From positions 1 to 36,582 of IMG/VR virus record IMGVR_UViG_3300005077_000058: a stretch of 36,582 nt of DNA; one strand, given 5' to 3'. This stretch comes from a virus (Duplodnaviria; Caudoviricetes). Below are positions 7,064-36,582 of this stretch, piece after piece. The notes beneath the pieces are model-generated. The model saw nothing but the letters and a program-made list of their open reading frames with translations, searched no databases and was not told the DNA's origin. Numbering within the stretch: the stretch's first letter is position 1; the number at the start of each line of letters is the position of its first letter. The position numbers and the translations under genes were made by a program.

Positions 7064-7306
7064 ATCCCCCCTCGGCTCTACGGAGTCGGGATGTGGAATA
7101 AACGTACCTATGATGATGCTTTCGGCGCTTAATAGAGAAGCTACTTACCATTATAGGTCTCCACACGCCAGCTCGACAAAACGCCTATAAGGCGAAACAA
7201 AAAGCTGGTAATATTAAAACAGTGGACTCCCACTAAATAAGTAGCCAGCAATAAGTGGGATCGGCCATCGAAGACGAAAACAAGTCCATCTGGCTATCAT
7301 GGGGGT
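7064..7306 (+). ncRNA. Candidate ~240-nt multi-helix structured RNA with pseudoknot
   Basis: At least seven nested helices with G-U pairs on the + strand, a C(UACG)G tetraloop and an 8-bp loop-tail pseudoknot (see findings). Confidence 0.6.
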
Positions 7307-7668
7307 GTGAACGTGTTCGGCTCGGATTCTTTGATCAGACTACCGCCCACTGGTTGAAGCAGTATCTAATTAGGAGGCATGATAACGAAAACTGTTTGTG
7401 GATTAATTTAAGGGCAATAAACGGCAGCCAAAGACTCTCTATAGTATCGATGCAGCGGATAGTTAGATCATACTGTCAAATCTTCGATAAACACGTTACA
7501 TGCCACACTCTCCGGCATTCGTACGCTACCAAGGTTTATGAAAAAACAAACGATATTCGTTTGACTCAAGATCTACTCGGCCATAAGAACATAATGACCA
7601 CGCAGATTTATACCCACATCAAGGATTCTCGGAAGAAAGACGCTTATAATACCGTTTTCGAAGATTGA
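7255..7668 (+). pseudogene. Truncated XerC/D-like tyrosine recombinase (C-terminal half only)
   Basis: HTLRHSYAT, LLGH and TTQIYTH are present; the first catalytic Arg motif and N-terminal domain are absent; the GKG.K motif is degenerate. Confidence 0.75.
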
Positions 7669-8817: not shown

Positions 8818-8847
8818 TTGACTTTCTGGCACGTGACGTGCTATGAT
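8818..8847 (+). promoter_or_regulatory. Sigma70-type promoter of the Csf/Ibr cassette with a palindrome in the spacer
   Basis: TTGACT(8818-23), 18 bp, TATGAT(8842-47), with extended -10 TG; palindrome GCACGT-G-ACGTGC at 8829-8841. Confidence 0.7.
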
Positions 8848-8886
8848 AGATACGTAAGCTACTTCATATTATTTAACCCAATCACT

Positions 8887-9291
8887 ATGAAGACTCAAAT
8901 TACAAAATTCTACAACGCTCAAGTCAAAACAAACGAAAAAAACGGTTTAAATTTCATGGATGCAAAAAAAGAGGCATATAAAGAACTTTACGACGAATTT
9001 TTTACAGAGCTTGATTCAAAGTTTGGCCAAGATGTCAAAGATTCCGCCTTCTGGGATGCAGTGAATGAGTGTGACGGAAATTCCCAGGAAATGGTCACAG
9101 ACTGGGAAAGTGAAGAAGGTCAAAAATTTGAAGATCTTTCAGATAAAGAAGTAGAAAATATTTTCAAAGATAAATGGGAAGAAACGTTTAGCCCTTGGAC
9201 AGAGAACCCTTGGCTTTTGGGCCCCGCTAAAGAAGAAGAAAAATATAAATATTTTGACCTGCTTCTTGAAGCTGCAGGCGTAAGCATCTAA
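8887..9291 (+). CDS. Acidic hypothetical protein (start revised from 8818)
   Basis: ATG at 8887 lies downstream of the promoter; D/E- and aromatic-rich. Confidence 0.7.
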   Translation: MKTQITKFYNAQVKTNEKNGLNFMDAKKEAYKELYDEFFTELDSKFGQDVKDSAFWDAVNECDGNSQEMVTDWESEEGQKFEDLSDKEVENIFKDKWEETFSPWTENPWLLGPAKEEEKYKYFDLLLEAAGVSI

Positions 9292-9307
9292 ATACTGTTG
9301 TCAAACC

Positions 9308-9337
9308 GGCCGCGACCCAATCACGAGCGCGGCCTTT
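9308..9337 (+). terminator. GC-rich hairpin, possible weak terminator or processing site
   Basis: GGCCGCG(9308-14), 13-nt loop, CGCGGCC(9328-34), then TTT. Confidence 0.45.
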
Positions 9338-9356
9338 CATATTTTCACATAAAATC

Positions 9357-9701
9357 ATGAAAAAAGAAACAATCAAAGAAATAGTAGACCAGATAATCAA
9401 TCACGGCCATGAGGGTGAATATCTGATAATAGATGGTGAGTCATGGAGAATAGAGCCTGAACCTATTGGCGGCTCGTTTGTCTTCAAGATACCGGAATAT
9501 GACGGATTCGTTGAAAATATGAAAGAAGACCTGATGCTTGATCTCATGCACCTAATCAGCGTATGGGAAGCCAAAGCACCGGCAAGAGACAGGGCCAGTA
9601 AAATGAATGAAACGTTAAGGAAAAACAATCCTGGTCATTACAAGAAAGCGGGGCGGAAAAGATGGAATAAGATCAAGAAAAATATTAAAATATATCCATG
9701 A
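9357..9701 (+). CDS. Hypothetical protein with acidic N-terminus and basic C-terminal helix
   Basis: ATGA-coupled to csf1; C-terminal HYKKAGRKRWNK suggests nucleic-acid binding. Confidence 0.7.
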   Translation: MKKETIKEIVDQIINHGHEGEYLIIDGESWRIEPEPIGGSFVFKIPEYDGFVENMKEDLMLDLMHLISVWEAKAPARDRASKMNETLRKNNPGHYKKAGRKRWNKIKKNIKIYP

Positions 9702-10312
9702 AGACTTTTCTTCAAAAAAGAATCACCTTTGAAGGGGGAAAAAGTATTGGCTTAAATATTTGTGGTATATGTAAAGAATACCTTGAATGCTTTGATGTGC
9801 TTAAAGATACTTTCACGAATCTTGATGAAGTTGGAACAGGTGTGTTTTGTGCTGAATGCGCACCTTTATTCACAACAGAATGGCTAAAAACAGCTTTTTA
9901 TTTCACTGAAAAAGAAATGCGAAAATTAAAACAGGCAGAGTTCGAGGATTTGTTATTTAACAATAAACTTGAATTTCCTTGTGTTCTTTCGTTTTCTGCG
10001 AGTAGAAAAAAACACAGACTTTATCGCAGTAATATAAGCAATTCACCAGAGCACGTCTATATATCCACAGATAACGGAGAAGTTGACTTGAATATTGAAA
10101 AAGATAAAAAGATTTTTGATGCCATGAAAAAACTTTATTCATTCAAAATCTCAAAAGAATGGATAAAGACCGGTAATTATCCATCTGGCGCTATTGCTGT
10201 AATCGGACTTCAACAGTTCATGAAGCTGGAAAAAGAACTTAAAAAACACAGGGGAACAGAAAAATTTAATTTACTTGTAGATTTTTTAAATAAACCAAAT
10301 GGAAATATATGA
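9698..10312 (+). CDS. csf1: Type IV CRISPR large subunit Csf1 (Cas8-like)
   Basis: CGIC...TFTN...CAEC Zn motif and P.VL...S.KKH motif; in an operon with Csf2/Csf3. Confidence 0.75.
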   Translation: MKTFLQKRITFEGGKSIGLNICGICKEYLECFDVLKDTFTNLDEVGTGVFCAECAPLFTTEWLKTAFYFTEKEMRKLKQAEFEDLLFNNKLEFPCVLSFSASRKKHRLYRSNISNSPEHVYISTDNGEVDLNIEKDKKIFDAMKKLYSFKISKEWIKTGNYPSGAIAVIGLQQFMKLEKELKKHRGTEKFNLLVDFLNKPNGNI

Positions 10313-10619
10313 AAAAATAGCAGATGTCCTTGAGGATGTCTGGATAAATATTGACTGGGATAACATCGATTCACGCCGGAGGATGAAAATATGGAGTGAA
10401 TTTGAAGCGCAGGTAAAAGCTTTGGCAAAATGTTATTCGCAATTACAGCCGTTCTTGGATAAATTATGCAGACGGTTTAATTCGCGGCTTACAAAACAGC
10501 AAACAAAATCTATATTAGAAGATCAAAAAGGTACATTAAATATATTACGAAATGAAACTACAATACCTGTTTTAATTCTTAAACTTAGGCAAGATGCAAA
10601 GAAATCAAACAGTTTATGA
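10299..10619 (+). CDS. Type IV-B small subunit (Cas11-like)
   Basis: About 106 aa, all-helical (IW..FE.QVK..A, FLDKLCRRF, L..LRNET); directly after csf1. Confidence 0.6.
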   Translation: MEIYEKIADVLEDVWINIDWDNIDSRRRMKIWSEFEAQVKALAKCYSQLQPFLDKLCRRFNSRLTKQQTKSILEDQKGTLNILRNETTIPVLILKLRQDAKKSNSL

Positions 10620-11883
10620 GGCTGCGAAGGAACGAATTAAATTCACATTTGACCACTTTGAAAAAATTAGTCTCTCTTTTTCAGGTGGCAAGGATAGTAC
10701 GGTGATGATGCATTTGGTTTGCGCTGAAGCTAGAAAAAGAAAACGTAAAATAGGATTGTTGATAATTGATCTTGAAGCCCAATATAAAGCCACCATGGAA
10801 CATGCTGTTGAAATGGTTGAAAAATATAAAGATGTACTTGAAATATATTGGGTGGCTTTACCGATTCATTTACGTAATGCAGTAAGCGTTTTTGACCCGC
10901 AATGGATTTGTTGGAATGATAACCAAAAAGATAAATGGGTACGACAACCTCCTGAATTTGCAATTACAAATAAAACTTTTTTCCCATTCTATCAATATGC
11001 AATGGAATTTGAAGATTTTGTTGATGAATTTAATAAATGGTATGCATATGAAGATGGCAGGAAAAGAATAACAGCGTGCTTCATTGGTATTCGTACACAG
11101 GAAAGTCTCAATAGGTGGAAGGCAATACATCGACACGAGGATTGTAATTTTCTTGGTAAAAAATATCTCAACAAAATTGAAGAACATATAATTAATGCCT
11201 ATCCAATATTTGATTTCAAAACAGAAGATATTTGGAAGGCTATAGGAATAAACAGTTGGGAGTACAATAAAATTTACGATCTTATGTATCAGACAGGAAA
11301 AACAATAAATGAATGCAGGATATGTCAGCCTTACGGAGACGATCAAAAACGAGGGCTGGATTTATTTCGGCAGTGTGAGCCTGAAACTTGGGAAAAAGTA
11401 GTGCAAAGAGTATCAGGAGCTAATTACGGCAATATTTATTGCGGTACTTACCTGCTTGGAAATAATAAAGTCATACTTCCTCCAAATATGACATGGCGTA
11501 AATATTTAGATTTTCTTCTTGAGACAATTCCTAAATGGCAAGCTGAATGGTACAAACATAAATTCAAAATATTCATGGATAATTGGGATAAATATTTTGA
11601 AGATTATATACAGGGGAATGCTTATAAATACGAAGGAAAAAAGATTTATGACAAAATAAATGCTTTTGCTGAACGTTGGCGAAGTCAAAAGGAAATTCCA
11701 GTTGAAGACCGTATAGCTGATGAAGAAGACCCACAGCTTGAAGGATTACCATTAGCACCGAGTTACAGACGAATGGTCAAATGCGTGTATAAAAATGATC
11801 TAGTCTGTTTTGGTCTAGGGCATGGTAGAACGCCAAATCTTTATTACGTTTTAGAATCTTACAAACAACAATATGGAGAATAA
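10594..11883 (+). CDS. ibrA: PAPS-reductase (CysH)-family protein of IbrA/YbdN (DUF3440) type
   Basis: PP-loop SFSGGKDS, IDLEAQY, RNAVS, GIRTQESLNR, YPIFDFKTEDIW, YN.IYDLMY, RICQPYGD, RVSGAN. Confidence 0.88.
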   Translation: MQRNQTVYEAAKERIKFTFDHFEKISLSFSGGKDSTVMMHLVCAEARKRKRKIGLLIIDLEAQYKATMEHAVEMVEKYKDVLEIYWVALPIHLRNAVSVFDPQWICWNDNQKDKWVRQPPEFAITNKTFFPFYQYAMEFEDFVDEFNKWYAYEDGRKRITACFIGIRTQESLNRWKAIHRHEDCNFLGKKYLNKIEEHIINAYPIFDFKTEDIWKAIGINSWEYNKIYDLMYQTGKTINECRICQPYGDDQKRGLDLFRQCEPETWEKVVQRVSGANYGNIYCGTYLLGNNKVILPPNMTWRKYLDFLLETIPKWQAEWYKHKFKIFMDNWDKYFEDYIQGNAYKYEGKKIYDKINAFAERWRSQKEIPVEDRIADEEDPQLEGLPLAPSYRRMVKCVYKNDLVCFGLGHGRTPNLYYVLESYKQQYGE

Positions 11884-12433
11884 ACACCCTGTTAATAATG
11901 TTCAGTGGATTCCAATAGATAAGGTATTTTCAAACGATTATAATCCAAACAAGGTAGCGCCACCTGAAATGAAGCTTTTGGAAAAAAGCATACGTGAAGA
12001 TGGATACACGCAGCCGGTGGTATGTTTTTATGATAAAAAAAACGATAAATATGTTATTGTAGATGGATTTCATCGATACAGAGTCTGTAAAGAAAATGCT
12101 GATATACAAGAAAGTACAGGAGGGTGCTTGCCAGTGGTGATTATAGACAAGCCAATAAGTAATCGTATGGCAAGTACAATTAGGCATAATAGAGCAAGGG
12201 GAACACACCAAATAGGAAATATGGCTGATCTTGTATCACAGTTATATCTTTCAGGATGGAGCAATAAACGAATAGGAGAAGAATTAGGGATGGATTTAGA
12301 TGAAATTAACAGGTTAAAACAATTTAAAGGGCTAGGGATTTTGTTTAAAAACTATGAATTTTCCAAAGCAGAACAAGATGATCAAACGTTTCATTATAAA
12401 TTTAGAAAACCAGTATTTAATCAACCTCAATGA
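11873..12433 (+). CDS. ibrB: ParB/Srx-domain protein of IbrB/YbdM type
   Basis: NDYNPNKVAPPEMKLL..SI.EDGYTQPVV, IVDGFHRY, MASTIRHNRARGTH, C-terminal HTH. Confidence 0.9.
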   Translation: MENKHPVNNVQWIPIDKVFSNDYNPNKVAPPEMKLLEKSIREDGYTQPVVCFYDKKNDKYVIVDGFHRYRVCKENADIQESTGGCLPVVIIDKPISNRMASTIRHNRARGTHQIGNMADLVSQLYLSGWSNKRIGEELGMDLDEINRLKQFKGLGILFKNYEFSKAEQDDQTFHYKFRKPVFNQPQ

Positions 12434-13290
12434 AACAATATCAGATAAAAGCTAAACTCCTTTCCTCTGCTATCCATACAGAAGAAACAAATAGTAATAT
12501 AGCCAACATATTCAGGGAAAGAATCTTAAAGGAAGATGTAATTTATGACGTTCCATGTATTCATGGGAACTCTATCAGAGGACATTTACGTAACATTGGA
12601 GCTGAACATTTTTTACAGAAAATTGAAGCTGAACCTAATTCACTTCCTACTAGTTTATTCCACATCCTTTTTTCCGGTGGAGCGCTTGAAAAATCAGAAG
12701 TCATTATTGATATAATGGCAAAAAAGAAACTACGTGAAACAGTTCCCTTTCTTTCTGTTTTTGGCTCTGCTGTTGGAGATGAAATGCTTGATGGTAAGCT
12801 AATTGTTTCTTCTGGCGTACCAGTATGTAAAGAGCTTCAAACAGGTAATACTTCAATCTATGATATGGTACAGCTCATTAGATATACCCGACAGGATGAC
12901 ACAAAAAAGTATTGTGGCGAGGCGTTTTCACAAGGAAACGAAATCACGCAGCAGATGTTTTATGACATTGAATGCCTGATTGCCGGAACGGAATTAAACT
13001 TTGAAATAATTTTGAAAAATCCTTCTGAAATAGAAGTGGGAATGATGGAAACTGTTTTGTCATTATTCCATGACAAATATCCATATTTAGGCAGCAAATC
13101 ATCAGCAGGCCATGGAAAGATAGAATTTGATTTTAAACCTGAAGCTGAACTGATAGAAAAATATAATCAGTATTTGATTAACAATAAAAATGAAATCAAA
13201 GAATACCTTGCAGAAAGATTCAATGGAAAGGTTATTAATAACCGCACACCTGAAATCAAACCCGATCATCTATCACAACATGTATCTTGA
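12430..13290 (+). CDS. csf2: Type IV CRISPR backbone subunit Csf2 (Cas7 RAMP)
   Basis: VPCIHGNSIRGHLR, LFSGGAL, PFLSVFGS, G.L.V, C-terminal G-rich loop LGSKSSAGHG. Confidence 0.88.
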   Translation: MKQYQIKAKLLSSAIHTEETNSNIANIFRERILKEDVIYDVPCIHGNSIRGHLRNIGAEHFLQKIEAEPNSLPTSLFHILFSGGALEKSEVIIDIMAKKKLRETVPFLSVFGSAVGDEMLDGKLIVSSGVPVCKELQTGNTSIYDMVQLIRYTRQDDTKKYCGEAFSQGNEITQQMFYDIECLIAGTELNFEIILKNPSEIEVGMMETVLSLFHDKYPYLGSKSSAGHGKIEFDFKPEAELIEKYNQYLINNKNEIKEYLAERFNGKVINNRTPEIKPDHLSQHVS

Positions 13291-13840
13291 TGGTATTCTT
13301 CATCATTTCGTACATGAACAGATGAAAGAAATCATGCATCGGCCACGCAAACCAAATGAACCACCATTGGAGGTTGTTATCCCCATTCAACGCAAAGGCG
13401 ATACGTATTTATGCTCTAAAGCACGCTATAAACCAATACAGCAGTACATTAATAAATGGCGCAAACGTTTCGATATTCAGCACGCAGAACACTGGAAAGA
13501 TAAACAAAAATTTAGAGTGGATTCAACCAAAACCAAAAACTATGACATGCCAGTACAAGTAACTATCTGTAAGGACAACAAGGTAAGCTGGATATGCATT
13601 GGAGACAAGGAGAAAATCAAAGAGATACTGACCAAAGTACACGGAATAGGTAAAAAGAACTCACAAGGATATGGATTAATAGAAAAATGGACAATTGAAA
13701 AGACTGATCATATTGGTGTGAGACATTTTCCTGTAATGTATAAAAAAGGGCTACCAGATGGTGAAATAACAGAATATATAACTTGTAATCCCCCTTATTC
13801 TGCTGGACAAAAACGGCTGTGTGTGATAAGAAAATTCTAG
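13223..13840 (+). CDS. csf3: Type IV CRISPR subunit Csf3 (Cas5 RAMP); start revised from 13190
   Basis: L.ITAHL, YLDGIL, G-rich loop GIGKKNSQGYGLIEKW, C-terminal PPY. Confidence 0.82.
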   Translation: MERLLITAHLKSNPIIYHNMYLDGILHHFVHEQMKEIMHRPRKPNEPPLEVVIPIQRKGDTYLCSKARYKPIQQYINKWRKRFDIQHAEHWKDKQKFRVDSTKTKNYDMPVQVTICKDNKVSWICIGDKEKIKEILTKVHGIGKKNSQGYGLIEKWTIEKTDHIGVRHFPVMYKKGLPDGEITEYITCNPPYSAGQKRLCVIRKF

Positions 13841-13927
13841 TTTTACCATTTTTTTTAATAAAATGGCTTATCTTTGAGGTCTTGATGTGGCGTTACCCTA
13901 CGATAAAAGGGGCTTAGAAATCTAACA

Positions 13928-13957
13928 GGGGGTATTTGGGAACAAATGCCCTTTTTT
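13928..13957 (+). terminator. Intrinsic terminator closing the Csf/Ibr operon
   Basis: GGGTATTTG-GGAA-CAAATGCCC followed by T6. Confidence 0.8.
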
Positions 13958-13974
13958 AGTATTATTTAAAAACC

Positions 13975-14003
13975 TTGACAACCGTCAGTTCTATGTATAT
14001 AAT
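13975..14003 (+). promoter_or_regulatory. Perfect-consensus sigma70 promoter
   Basis: TTGACA(13975-80), 17 bp, TATAAT(13998-14003). Confidence 0.85.
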
Positions 14004-14092: not shown

Positions 14093-14242
14093 ATGTTAAT
14101 AATTTTTATTGTTGGATTAGCAATATTAGCTGGAATTCTATCATTTATACCGGGGCTTAATATCCTCGGATGGATAACTTTTGCAATTATTGTTCCATTA
14201 GGGGCTTGGTGTTGGTATCAAGAGAAGAAGTCCCATACTTAA
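14093..14242 (+). CDS. 49-aa two-TM membrane microprotein (MLIIFIVGLAILAGILSFIPGLNILGWITFAIIVPLGAWCWYQEKKSHT)
   Basis: Hand-translated; the most plausible ORF downstream of the consensus promoter. Confidence 0.6.
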   Translation: MLIIFIVGLAILAGILSFIPGLNILGWITFAIIVPLGAWCWYQEKKSHT

Positions 14243-36057: not shown

Positions 36058-36582
36058 ATGGCAAATGCAGGATGGATATTAATTTATAAAAAAATCACAC
36101 AATGGGAATGGTGGGATGACATACCTACACGAAATTTATTTTTATATTTACTGATAACAGCTAACTACGAAACAACAATACATAGAGGCATAGAAATACA
36201 AAGAGGACAACTACTAACAGGGCGTAAACAACTCGCATTAAAGGCTGGTTTATCTGAGCAACAAGTCAAACGAGCACTTAAGAACCTACAAACAACCAAC
36301 GAAATAACCAACAAAACAACCAACAGATACTCGCTTATTACCGTCATAAACTACGACCTCTATCAAACAAAAGAACCAACAAAGAACCAACAAACACACC
36401 AACAAAAAACCGGAAAAGAACCACATATAAAAGAATATAAAGAAATAAAAGAAGAAAAGAAGGGGGAAGAATTCCACCTCCATGAAAATTTTGTCTCCTT
36501 ATCGGAAACTCAATATGAAAAATTAAAGGCCGCAATTCCGGCGGTGGATGAACTGATTGAAAACATGAACCTGTATTGCGCT
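36058..36582 (+). CDS. Phage replication initiator (N-terminal winged helix), runs off the window end
   Basis: Hand-translated: MANAGWILIYKKITQWEWWDD...LFLYLLITANY...RGQLLTGRKQLA...GLSEQQVKRAL..L...NEI...TTNRYSLITVINYDLYQ; no stop in 175 codons. Confidence 0.85.
   Translation, partial: MANAGWILIYKKITQWEWWDDIPTRNLFLYLLITANYETTIHRGIEIQRGQLLTGRKQLALKAGLSEQQVKRALKNLQTTNEITNKTTNRYSLITVINYDLYQTKEPTKNQQTHQQKTGKEPHIKEYKEIKEEKKGEEFHLHENFVSLSETQYEKLKAAIPAVDELIENMNLYCA
36294..36403 (+). repeat. Iteron-like repeats, probable replication origin inside the initiator gene
   Basis: AACCAAC at 36294, 36306, 36318 (12-bp period), 36374 and 36385, ACCAAC at 36398, followed by an A-rich tract. Confidence 0.6.

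Follow-up and report, generated by a model that had tools for sequence, protein, structure and literature searches.

A phage-borne variant of the type IV-B CRISPR effector locus with an IbrA-IbrB pair embedded in its operon

The virus record IMGVR_UViG_3300005077_000058 of IMG/VR, a tailed-phage contig (Duplodnaviria; Caudoviricetes) analysed here over its whole length of 36,582 nucleotides (the window), carries an operon for a type IV-B-like CRISPR effector that encloses genes for an IbrA/YbdN-like PP-loop enzyme and its ParB-like companion IbrB/YbdM (together IbrAB). The locus is a real, recurrent variant of type IV-B and apparently an undescribed one: there are 14 distinct loci, the window among them, at which IbrAB lies inside a type IV-B operon or next to one. 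Type IV-B loci in phages and the idea that they act through adenylation have already been published. The definition of type IV-B, its association with the 3'-phosphoadenosine-5'-phosphosulfate (PAPS) reductase-like protein CysH and a hypothesis of AMPylation come from earlier work (PMC8175902, 10.1101/270033, PMC7038947).

A type IV-B effector operon enclosing ibrA and ibrB

The operon lies on the + strand in the order csf1 (9698-10312), cas11 (10299-10619), ibrA (10594-11883), ibrB (11873-12433), csf2 (12430-13290) and csf3 (13223-13840), with successive overlaps of 14, 26, 11, 4 and 68 nucleotides (nt), the last measured from the likely csf3 start at 13223. An earlier reading of this DNA, made without database searches (the sequence-only reading), had proposed six overlapping open reading frames (ORFs) in this order and a type IV-B-like effector, and profile searches agree with it on each point. 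Csf1 is a Cas8-like large subunit of 204 amino acids (aa) with N-terminal cysteine pairs (PADLOC Csf1_0_IV, E 2e-20), Cas11 a small subunit of 106 aa (Cas11_1_IV, E 8e-16), Csf2 a Cas7 backbone protein of 286 aa whose C-terminal tail overlaps csf3 (PADLOC, E 1e-55), and Csf3 a Cas5 protein of 205 aa from its likely start (PADLOC, E 4e-33; the longest csf3 ORF begins at 13190, and the match starts at its residue 11). In the PDB the top match of the Csf2 profile was the type IV-B Csf2 of entry 7jhy (E 2e-32), and the Csf1 and Csf3 profiles each matched their solved counterparts.

The sequence-only reading had also noted that the genome lacks the other type IV components, and window-wide scans bear this out. 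We rate the phage genome as near-complete because the contig starts just before dnaB, stops inside a replication-initiator gene and ends without terminal overlap. It holds no CRISPR array or mini-array (at a spacing of 50-90 nt, only low-complexity repeats within the replication gene were returned), and cas1, cas2, cas6 and dinG were found neither among the 8 ORFs of the locus nor among the 32 other window ORFs scanned. A six-frame profile search of the window for a short CysH or its remnant returned ibrA alone; with CysH gone, IbrA is therefore the sole PP-loop enzyme there. Types IV-A, IV-D and IV-E were ruled out, as there is no DinG/RecD helicase, no Cas6/Csf5 and no array, and type IV-C was ruled out by the large subunit, which is a 204-aa Csf1 and not a Cas10-like protein with an HD domain.

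The locus thus shows the csf1/csf2/csf3 core, cas11 and the lack of an array, Cas6, adaptation genes and helicase that mark type IV-B, with IbrA as its PAPS-reductase-family gene. Like known type IV-B systems, among them the one whose complex was solved from Mycobacterium sp. JS623 (PDB 7jhy), it has four effector genes and a PAPS-reductase-family gene in the operon, has no nuclease and sits on a mobile element. Unlike them it has no short (220-280 aa) CysH, and a 429-aa DUF3440 enzyme with a ParB partner stands between cas11 and csf2. Because the short Cas-clade CysH orthologue of canonical loci is absent, we class the locus as a variant of type IV-B and not as a canonical member. With six genes and one PP-loop enzyme, it is the minimal form and the cleanest test case for the pairing.

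The two embedded genes match what the sequence-only reading had called them, namely a long DUF3440-type IbrA and a ParB-like IbrB. IbrA combines a PAPS_reduct domain (PF01507, 54.6 bits against a cut-off of 22.5) with DUF3440 (PF11922, likewise above cut-off) and keeps an intact SGGKDS motif, which is at least 90% conserved; it is 37-42% identical to phage genes annotated as IbrA. An AlphaFold model built from 122 sequences has a predicted local distance difference test (pLDDT) score of 93, and its residues 1-260 adopt the fold of the FAD synthase/CysD/PAPS reductase group (Z 15.9, root-mean-square deviation 3.1, 173 residues aligned; about 15-16 across the group), in line with the PP-loop fold that had been predicted. 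From its fold, IbrA is predicted to carry out an ATP-adenylating reaction; relatives of this fold also include the RNA modifiers TilS, TtuA and NcsA. A structure search with the complete IbrA model, in which the DUF3440 domain was not searched by itself, gave no clear match for the DUF3440 fold, and no solved IbrA structure was found by sequence. IbrB (186 aa) consists of a ParB/Srx nucleotide-binding domain and a helical C-terminus (PF02195, E 3e-7; phrog_2159, E 1e-76), and its motifs NxYNPN (NDYNPN in the window), DGFHR and TIRHNRARG are each at least 95% conserved among 86 homologues. The pair shares with the Escherichia coli prophage regulators IbrA/IbrB, and with YbdN/YbdM of K-12 (COG3969), a PAPS_reduct plus DUF3440 protein followed by an overlapping ParB_N gene. 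In E. coli, IbrA/IbrB activates prophage gene expression, to which PMC8813620 and PMC4541368 allude.

The relation between IbrA and CysH bears on whether one could stand in for the other. The short Cas-linked CysH aligns to IbrA residues 161-273 (probability 98%), and IbrA could therefore plausibly replace it. In trees the short CysHs form a branch apart from IbrA, which makes the two related clans and not orthologues; the idea that IbrA is simply a CysH orthologue was rejected on this ground.

Recurrence, co-inheritance and partners of IbrAB

A one-off insertion without conserved linkage would have counted against the sequence-only reading, and a survey of csf2 and ibrA neighbourhoods showed otherwise: with the pairing at 14 distinct loci, a single insertion of IbrAB is rejected. 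Short CysH is retained in 12 of the 14, and is missing only at the window and at locus L092. The position of IbrAB varies widely, and the order cas11-ibrAB-csf2 occurs only in the window. IbrAB is thus a repeatedly recruited accessory and not a fixed subunit. Among the 80 viral IbrA loci closest to the window IbrA, out of 463, nine carry csf genes (one of them repeats L015, and two are near-identical). IbrAB accompanies 4 of 53 viral Csf2 loci. As both genes are rare in phage records (of 50,697, IbrA was found in 136 and Csf2 in a single one), their co-occurrence is far above chance. Outside viruses, the haloarchaeal plasmids NZ_CP135527.1 and CP031299.1 carry csf1-cas11-csf2-csf3 with both IbrAB and CysH; these two loci come from cultured strains, Halomontanus rarus KZCA124 (L218) and Natrinema thermotolerans A29 (L219), and their operons are unannotated. 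The viral collection contained no DNA of close relatives. One more distant locus, L054, came from metagenomes and has CysH, and three Methanobacteriaceae loci turned up in genomes.

Within the window's own lineage the two genes appear to have travelled together. Three pairs of Csf2 and IbrA clusters come from contigs of equal size: P0002/P0028 (15,977), P0008/P0147 (20,141) and P0015/P0031, the last agreeing at four sizes (2,304, 2,332, 8,299 and 14,033). Between 24 Csf2 and 22 IbrA contig values there are six exact matches, where simulation gave 0.03 expected. On this indirect evidence, csf2 and ibrA seem to have been inherited together in three close relatives. The window and these three relatives form one clade in both the Csf2 and the IbrA tree (Shimodaira-Hasegawa-like approximate likelihood ratio test, 98 and 100; a compatible split). 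Gene order differs even among such close relatives, as the 2.3-kb contigs leave no room for a complete ibrB between ibrA and csf2. For seven of the ten related IbrA clusters there was no Csf2 contig of equal size, and ten further Csf2 clusters yielded no additional size match to the window's IbrA clade. In that clade (support 0.87), eight of the nine members with known context are Cas-linked, three of them solely by equal contig size. The co-phylogeny that the sequence-only reading had named as a check holds as one shared clade in this lineage and fails across loci, where IbrA distances do not follow those of Csf2 (Mantel r 0.22, p 0.18, n 12); stable IbrAB-Cas co-evolution throughout the subtype is rejected. 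Taken together, local co-inheritance and the lack of a subtype-wide co-phylogeny indicate that IbrAB was recruited repeatedly and then kept within lineages.

The neighbours of IbrAB outside Cas loci suggest what the Csf complex may replace. From 146 dereplicated IbrA loci, 134 of them non-Cas, we kept the 81 non-Cas loci with at least 2 kb on both flanks and dropped 53 with short flanks. Family X was present at 39 of the 81, an SNF2-like helicase at 24 and family Y, which has a weak Gp111 match, at 15; at least one of the three stood at 75 of the 81, and two together at only 3. Families X and Y (for example L158:6597-6995 and L093:7585-7992) are small and uncharacterised and alternate with the SNF2 helicase beside viral ibrAB. 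Such a partner was found at only one of 12 Cas-linked loci, L092, and was absent from both haloarchaeal loci among the genes tested. The Cas-linked loci L065, L134 and L136 lack family Y, and their nearest non-Cas relatives have it. The window pair differs from IbrA/IbrB as annotated in Streptococcus and Flavobacterium phages in being embedded in a cas operon, and it has no SNF2, X or Y partner of the kind present at 75 of the 81 non-Cas loci. We conclude that the Csf complex likely fills the third-partner slot of IbrAB.

Readings of the pairing

Because the pairing recurs in other viruses, the Csf complex likely aims IbrAB. The fuller reading that we favour, tentatively and as somewhat short of probable, is that the complex directs IbrAB to a nucleic acid, on which a mark is then set through an adenylated intermediate. 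Csf2, Cas11, Csf3 and Csf1 would come together around a short RNA, like their counterparts from JS623, and bind a target without cutting it. The IbrB-IbrA pair would dock on or near the complex, and IbrA would split ATP into an AMP-substrate and pyrophosphate and mark the target covalently, so as to silence or protect it. Elsewhere in viruses the SNF2 motor or one of the two small proteins may take the same aiming slot. The purpose would most plausibly be directed against host defence or rival elements. CCWGG is avoided in the phage DNA (8 occurrences per strand word where 54 are expected), as are GATC and GGWCC; this slightly disfavours a blanket protective mark on the phage's own DNA.

Several observations weigh against aiming by the Csf complex. 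IbrAB is usually added beside the short CysH and not in its place, and it is absent from 49 of 53 viral Csf2 loci. Of the 53, some of them near-duplicates, 42 encode a short CysH, and each of the 4 that carry IbrAB encodes CysH too. The Csf2 proteins of L017, which has IbrAB, and L007, which lacks it, are near-identical. A second IbrA sample, covering 9 of the viral collection's 64 parts, gave csf genes at 1 of 76 new loci, and this was a repeat of L065. A fixed protein interface should co-vary, and the distances speak against one: besides the Csf2 comparison given above, the Mantel r of IbrA was -0.06 against Csf3 (n 11) and 0.24 against Csf1 (n 10), where IbrA-IbrB and Csf2-Csf1 gave 0.81 and 0.78. 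The sequence-only reading, in which the Csf complex and IbrAB would work as one machine, is weakened by these distances, by the CysH retained at most linked loci and by a position of IbrAB that is unique to the window. No guide candidate emerged, as Rfam gave no match of note in the window and 110 flanks of 59 IV-B loci share only short A-rich matches, and RNA binding by the JS623 complex showed no preference for a sequence (PMC7937560). The partner test is also less decisive than its nominal p of 2e-9, which overstates the case, and it is partly circular, because the families were picked for being the most frequent neighbours of those very loci; moreover, the Cas-linked loci represent about six independent events, and the upstream slot of L064 lies off the contig.

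It may instead be that a shared operon houses separate jobs, an account that we regard as a serious contender although on the unlikely side: the IV-B operon would be a landing site for modification genes of the same timing, with IbrAB alone marking phage DNA and the Csf complex sponging host small RNAs or blocking transcription. The lack of a global co-phylogeny and the many gene orders fit such a division, as do the frequent occurrence of IbrAB without Cas, the varied unrelated enzymes inserted in IV-B operons and the RNA-sponge idea already in print (PMC7038947, PMC7937560). It accounts less well for a third partner that is nearly universal outside Cas loci and missing within them, for the loss from the window of a CysH that is nearly invariant in IV-B, which leaves IbrA as the sole PP-loop enzyme, and for the co-inheritance of csf2 and ibrA in the window's lineage.

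In a broader version of aiming, IV-B complexes would serve as RNA-guided carriers of nucleic-acid-modifying enzymes that can be exchanged for one another, and this phage lineage would have traded CysH for IbrAB and so become a natural programmable 'writer' that marks its target instead of cutting it. We consider this unlikely; its cargo would include CysH, IbrAB and TGT-like, radical SAM or methyltransferase genes. A scan of 84 IV-B neighbour proteins, most without a match, found methyltransferases (L012, L055, L056), GNATs (L020, L101) and a SpoU methylase (L050). Among type IV loci without CysH, L003 (9522-10961) and L030 (9685-11226) have a radical SAM gene directly 3' of csf3, and L003 also carries cas6. 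The CysH slot of L025 (8669-9328) and L049 (8680-9387) is filled by an unnamed family with an invariant DSGA motif and 52 homologues. By eye this family looks TGT/DpdA-like; 1 of 42 homologues matched PF01702 (E 8e-4), and the PDB gave the label no support. The DSGA homologue P0204 and the Csf2 P0393 lie on contigs of equal size (4,442). We also observed Csf2 proteins of about 400-430 aa with a fused Cas11-like part at L015, L025, L031-L033, L035, L036, L038, L040, L041, L049 and L136.

It is distinctly improbable that IbrAB acts upstream of the Csf complex, adenylating, capping or maturing the Csf-loaded RNA (or a Cas subunit) in place of a Cas6/array pathway. The window has neither Cas6 nor an array, the JS623 complex made of the four Csf proteins only carried heterogeneous RNA (PMC7937560), and some PP-loop fold relatives modify RNA (TilS, TtuA, NcsA); yet the SNF2-type motor that accompanies non-Cas IbrAB points to DNA, and CysH is retained in at least one Cas6-bearing locus (L031, L047, L055). 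RNA-guided sulfur insertion of the DndC type (a phosphorothioate or thio-base, via a host desulfurase), chemistry that the sequence-only reading had raised, is very improbable: although a PP-loop enzyme with a ParB partner recalls DndC/DndB (PMC10853773) and IbrA keeps C106, C244 and C405 (in 112, 119 and 109 of 122 sequences) where the short Cas-CysH reportedly lacks a catalytic cysteine (PMC8175902), the DndC model scored 22 bits against a cut-off of 290, dndA, dndD and dndE were not found in the window, the alignment of 122 IbrA sequences has no conserved CxxC pair, and C244 is serine in the most divergent IbrA sequences (3 of 122), so that a DndC-type system was rejected. More generally, DndB/DndC, BrxP of type 4 BREX and SspD have in common with the window a PAPS-reductase-fold enzyme, and Dnd a ParB-family companion (context in PMC10853773, PMC12839542), but the profile similarity of the window proteins is weak, their cysteine pattern is another, and there is no desulfurase, ABC ATPase or DndE.

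The phage genome and the meaning of the pairing

Profile scans of the window matched terminase, major head protein, DnaB, Sak4 and RusA genes, with the capsid protein only about 27% identical to its best matches. Upstream of csf1 lie two further + strand ORFs, ORF A (8887-9291; 134 aa, acidic) and ORF B (9357-9701; 114 aa, with a basic C-terminus), which matched no family profile, no Atlas entry and none of the X, Y and SNF2 partner profiles. As ORF B overlaps csf1 by 4 nt, seven ORFs overlap in all. A sigma-70-like promoter candidate at 8818-8847 (+; TTGACT-18-TATGAT with TG, a 10/12 match) precedes ORF A, and it is plausible that both extra ORFs share a transcript with the six operon genes, as the candidate lies upstream of both. 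The single promoter and terminator of the sequence-only reading fared unequally: a terminator-like hairpin with a T run stands at 13927-13960 (+; 12-bp stem at 13927-13954), and the promoter is plausible only, because promoter-like sites are no commoner in the region than in shuffled sequence (19 against 21.5). Between ORF A and ORF B, a G+C hairpin that leads into a T-rich run (9308-9334, +; z -2.1 over a 76-nt stretch) is possibly an attenuator or processing stem; the word ACCCAATCAC, found both in the loop of this hairpin and ahead of ORF A, was discarded as a signal since its frequency is at chance. Third-position GC is 0.25-0.28 in the first five operon genes and 0.35 in csf3, against 0.30-0.41 in six core genes, a hint that the first five were acquired after that bias arose.

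Directly past the terminator, a perfect TTGACA-17-TATAAT promoter (13975-14003, +) precedes a 49-aa hydrophobic ORF (14093-14242, +) that overlaps the end of a convergent gene and resembles a membrane moron with expression of its own. Elsewhere, a 137-aa ORF (7255-7668, +) corresponds to the C-terminal catalytic part alone of a tyrosine recombinase, and iteron-like AACCAAC low-complexity repeats lie within the replication-initiator gene (36280-36418). By eye, no Shine-Dalgarno motif stands upstream of the gene starts listed for the window (35), the leaders being A/C-rich instead, which fits a Bacteroidota or Patescibacteria host; the relatives P0036 and P0179 carry the label Bacteroidota metagenome-assembled genome.

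Much of the setting is already on record. PP-loop adenylation and capture of CRISPR RNA (crRNA) were proposed earlier for type IV-B (PMC8175902, PMC7038947), and the single IV-B complex examined for crRNA capture showed none (PMC7937560). Viral type IV-B loci with CysH have been reported (PMC10848311, 10.1101/2023.08.02.551345), and viral copies are known in Fuxiviridae and a Methanoperedens virus. The main text of the 2025 classification (PMC12669027) names no such variant, and in the publications consulted IbrAB/YbdNM figures solely as an annotation or a member of a regulon (PMC9068703, PMC8813620, PMC4541368). We found no publication that links IbrAB to type IV-B in the partial texts available, and supplementary locus tables of IV-B surveys may list such neighbours.

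Type IV-B has no established function, and IbrA/IbrB is widespread with no known reaction; their recurrent pairing joins both questions. If the Csf complex does aim IbrAB, a Cascade-like complex directing a modifying enzyme would add a new output to those of CRISPR and might serve as a tool.

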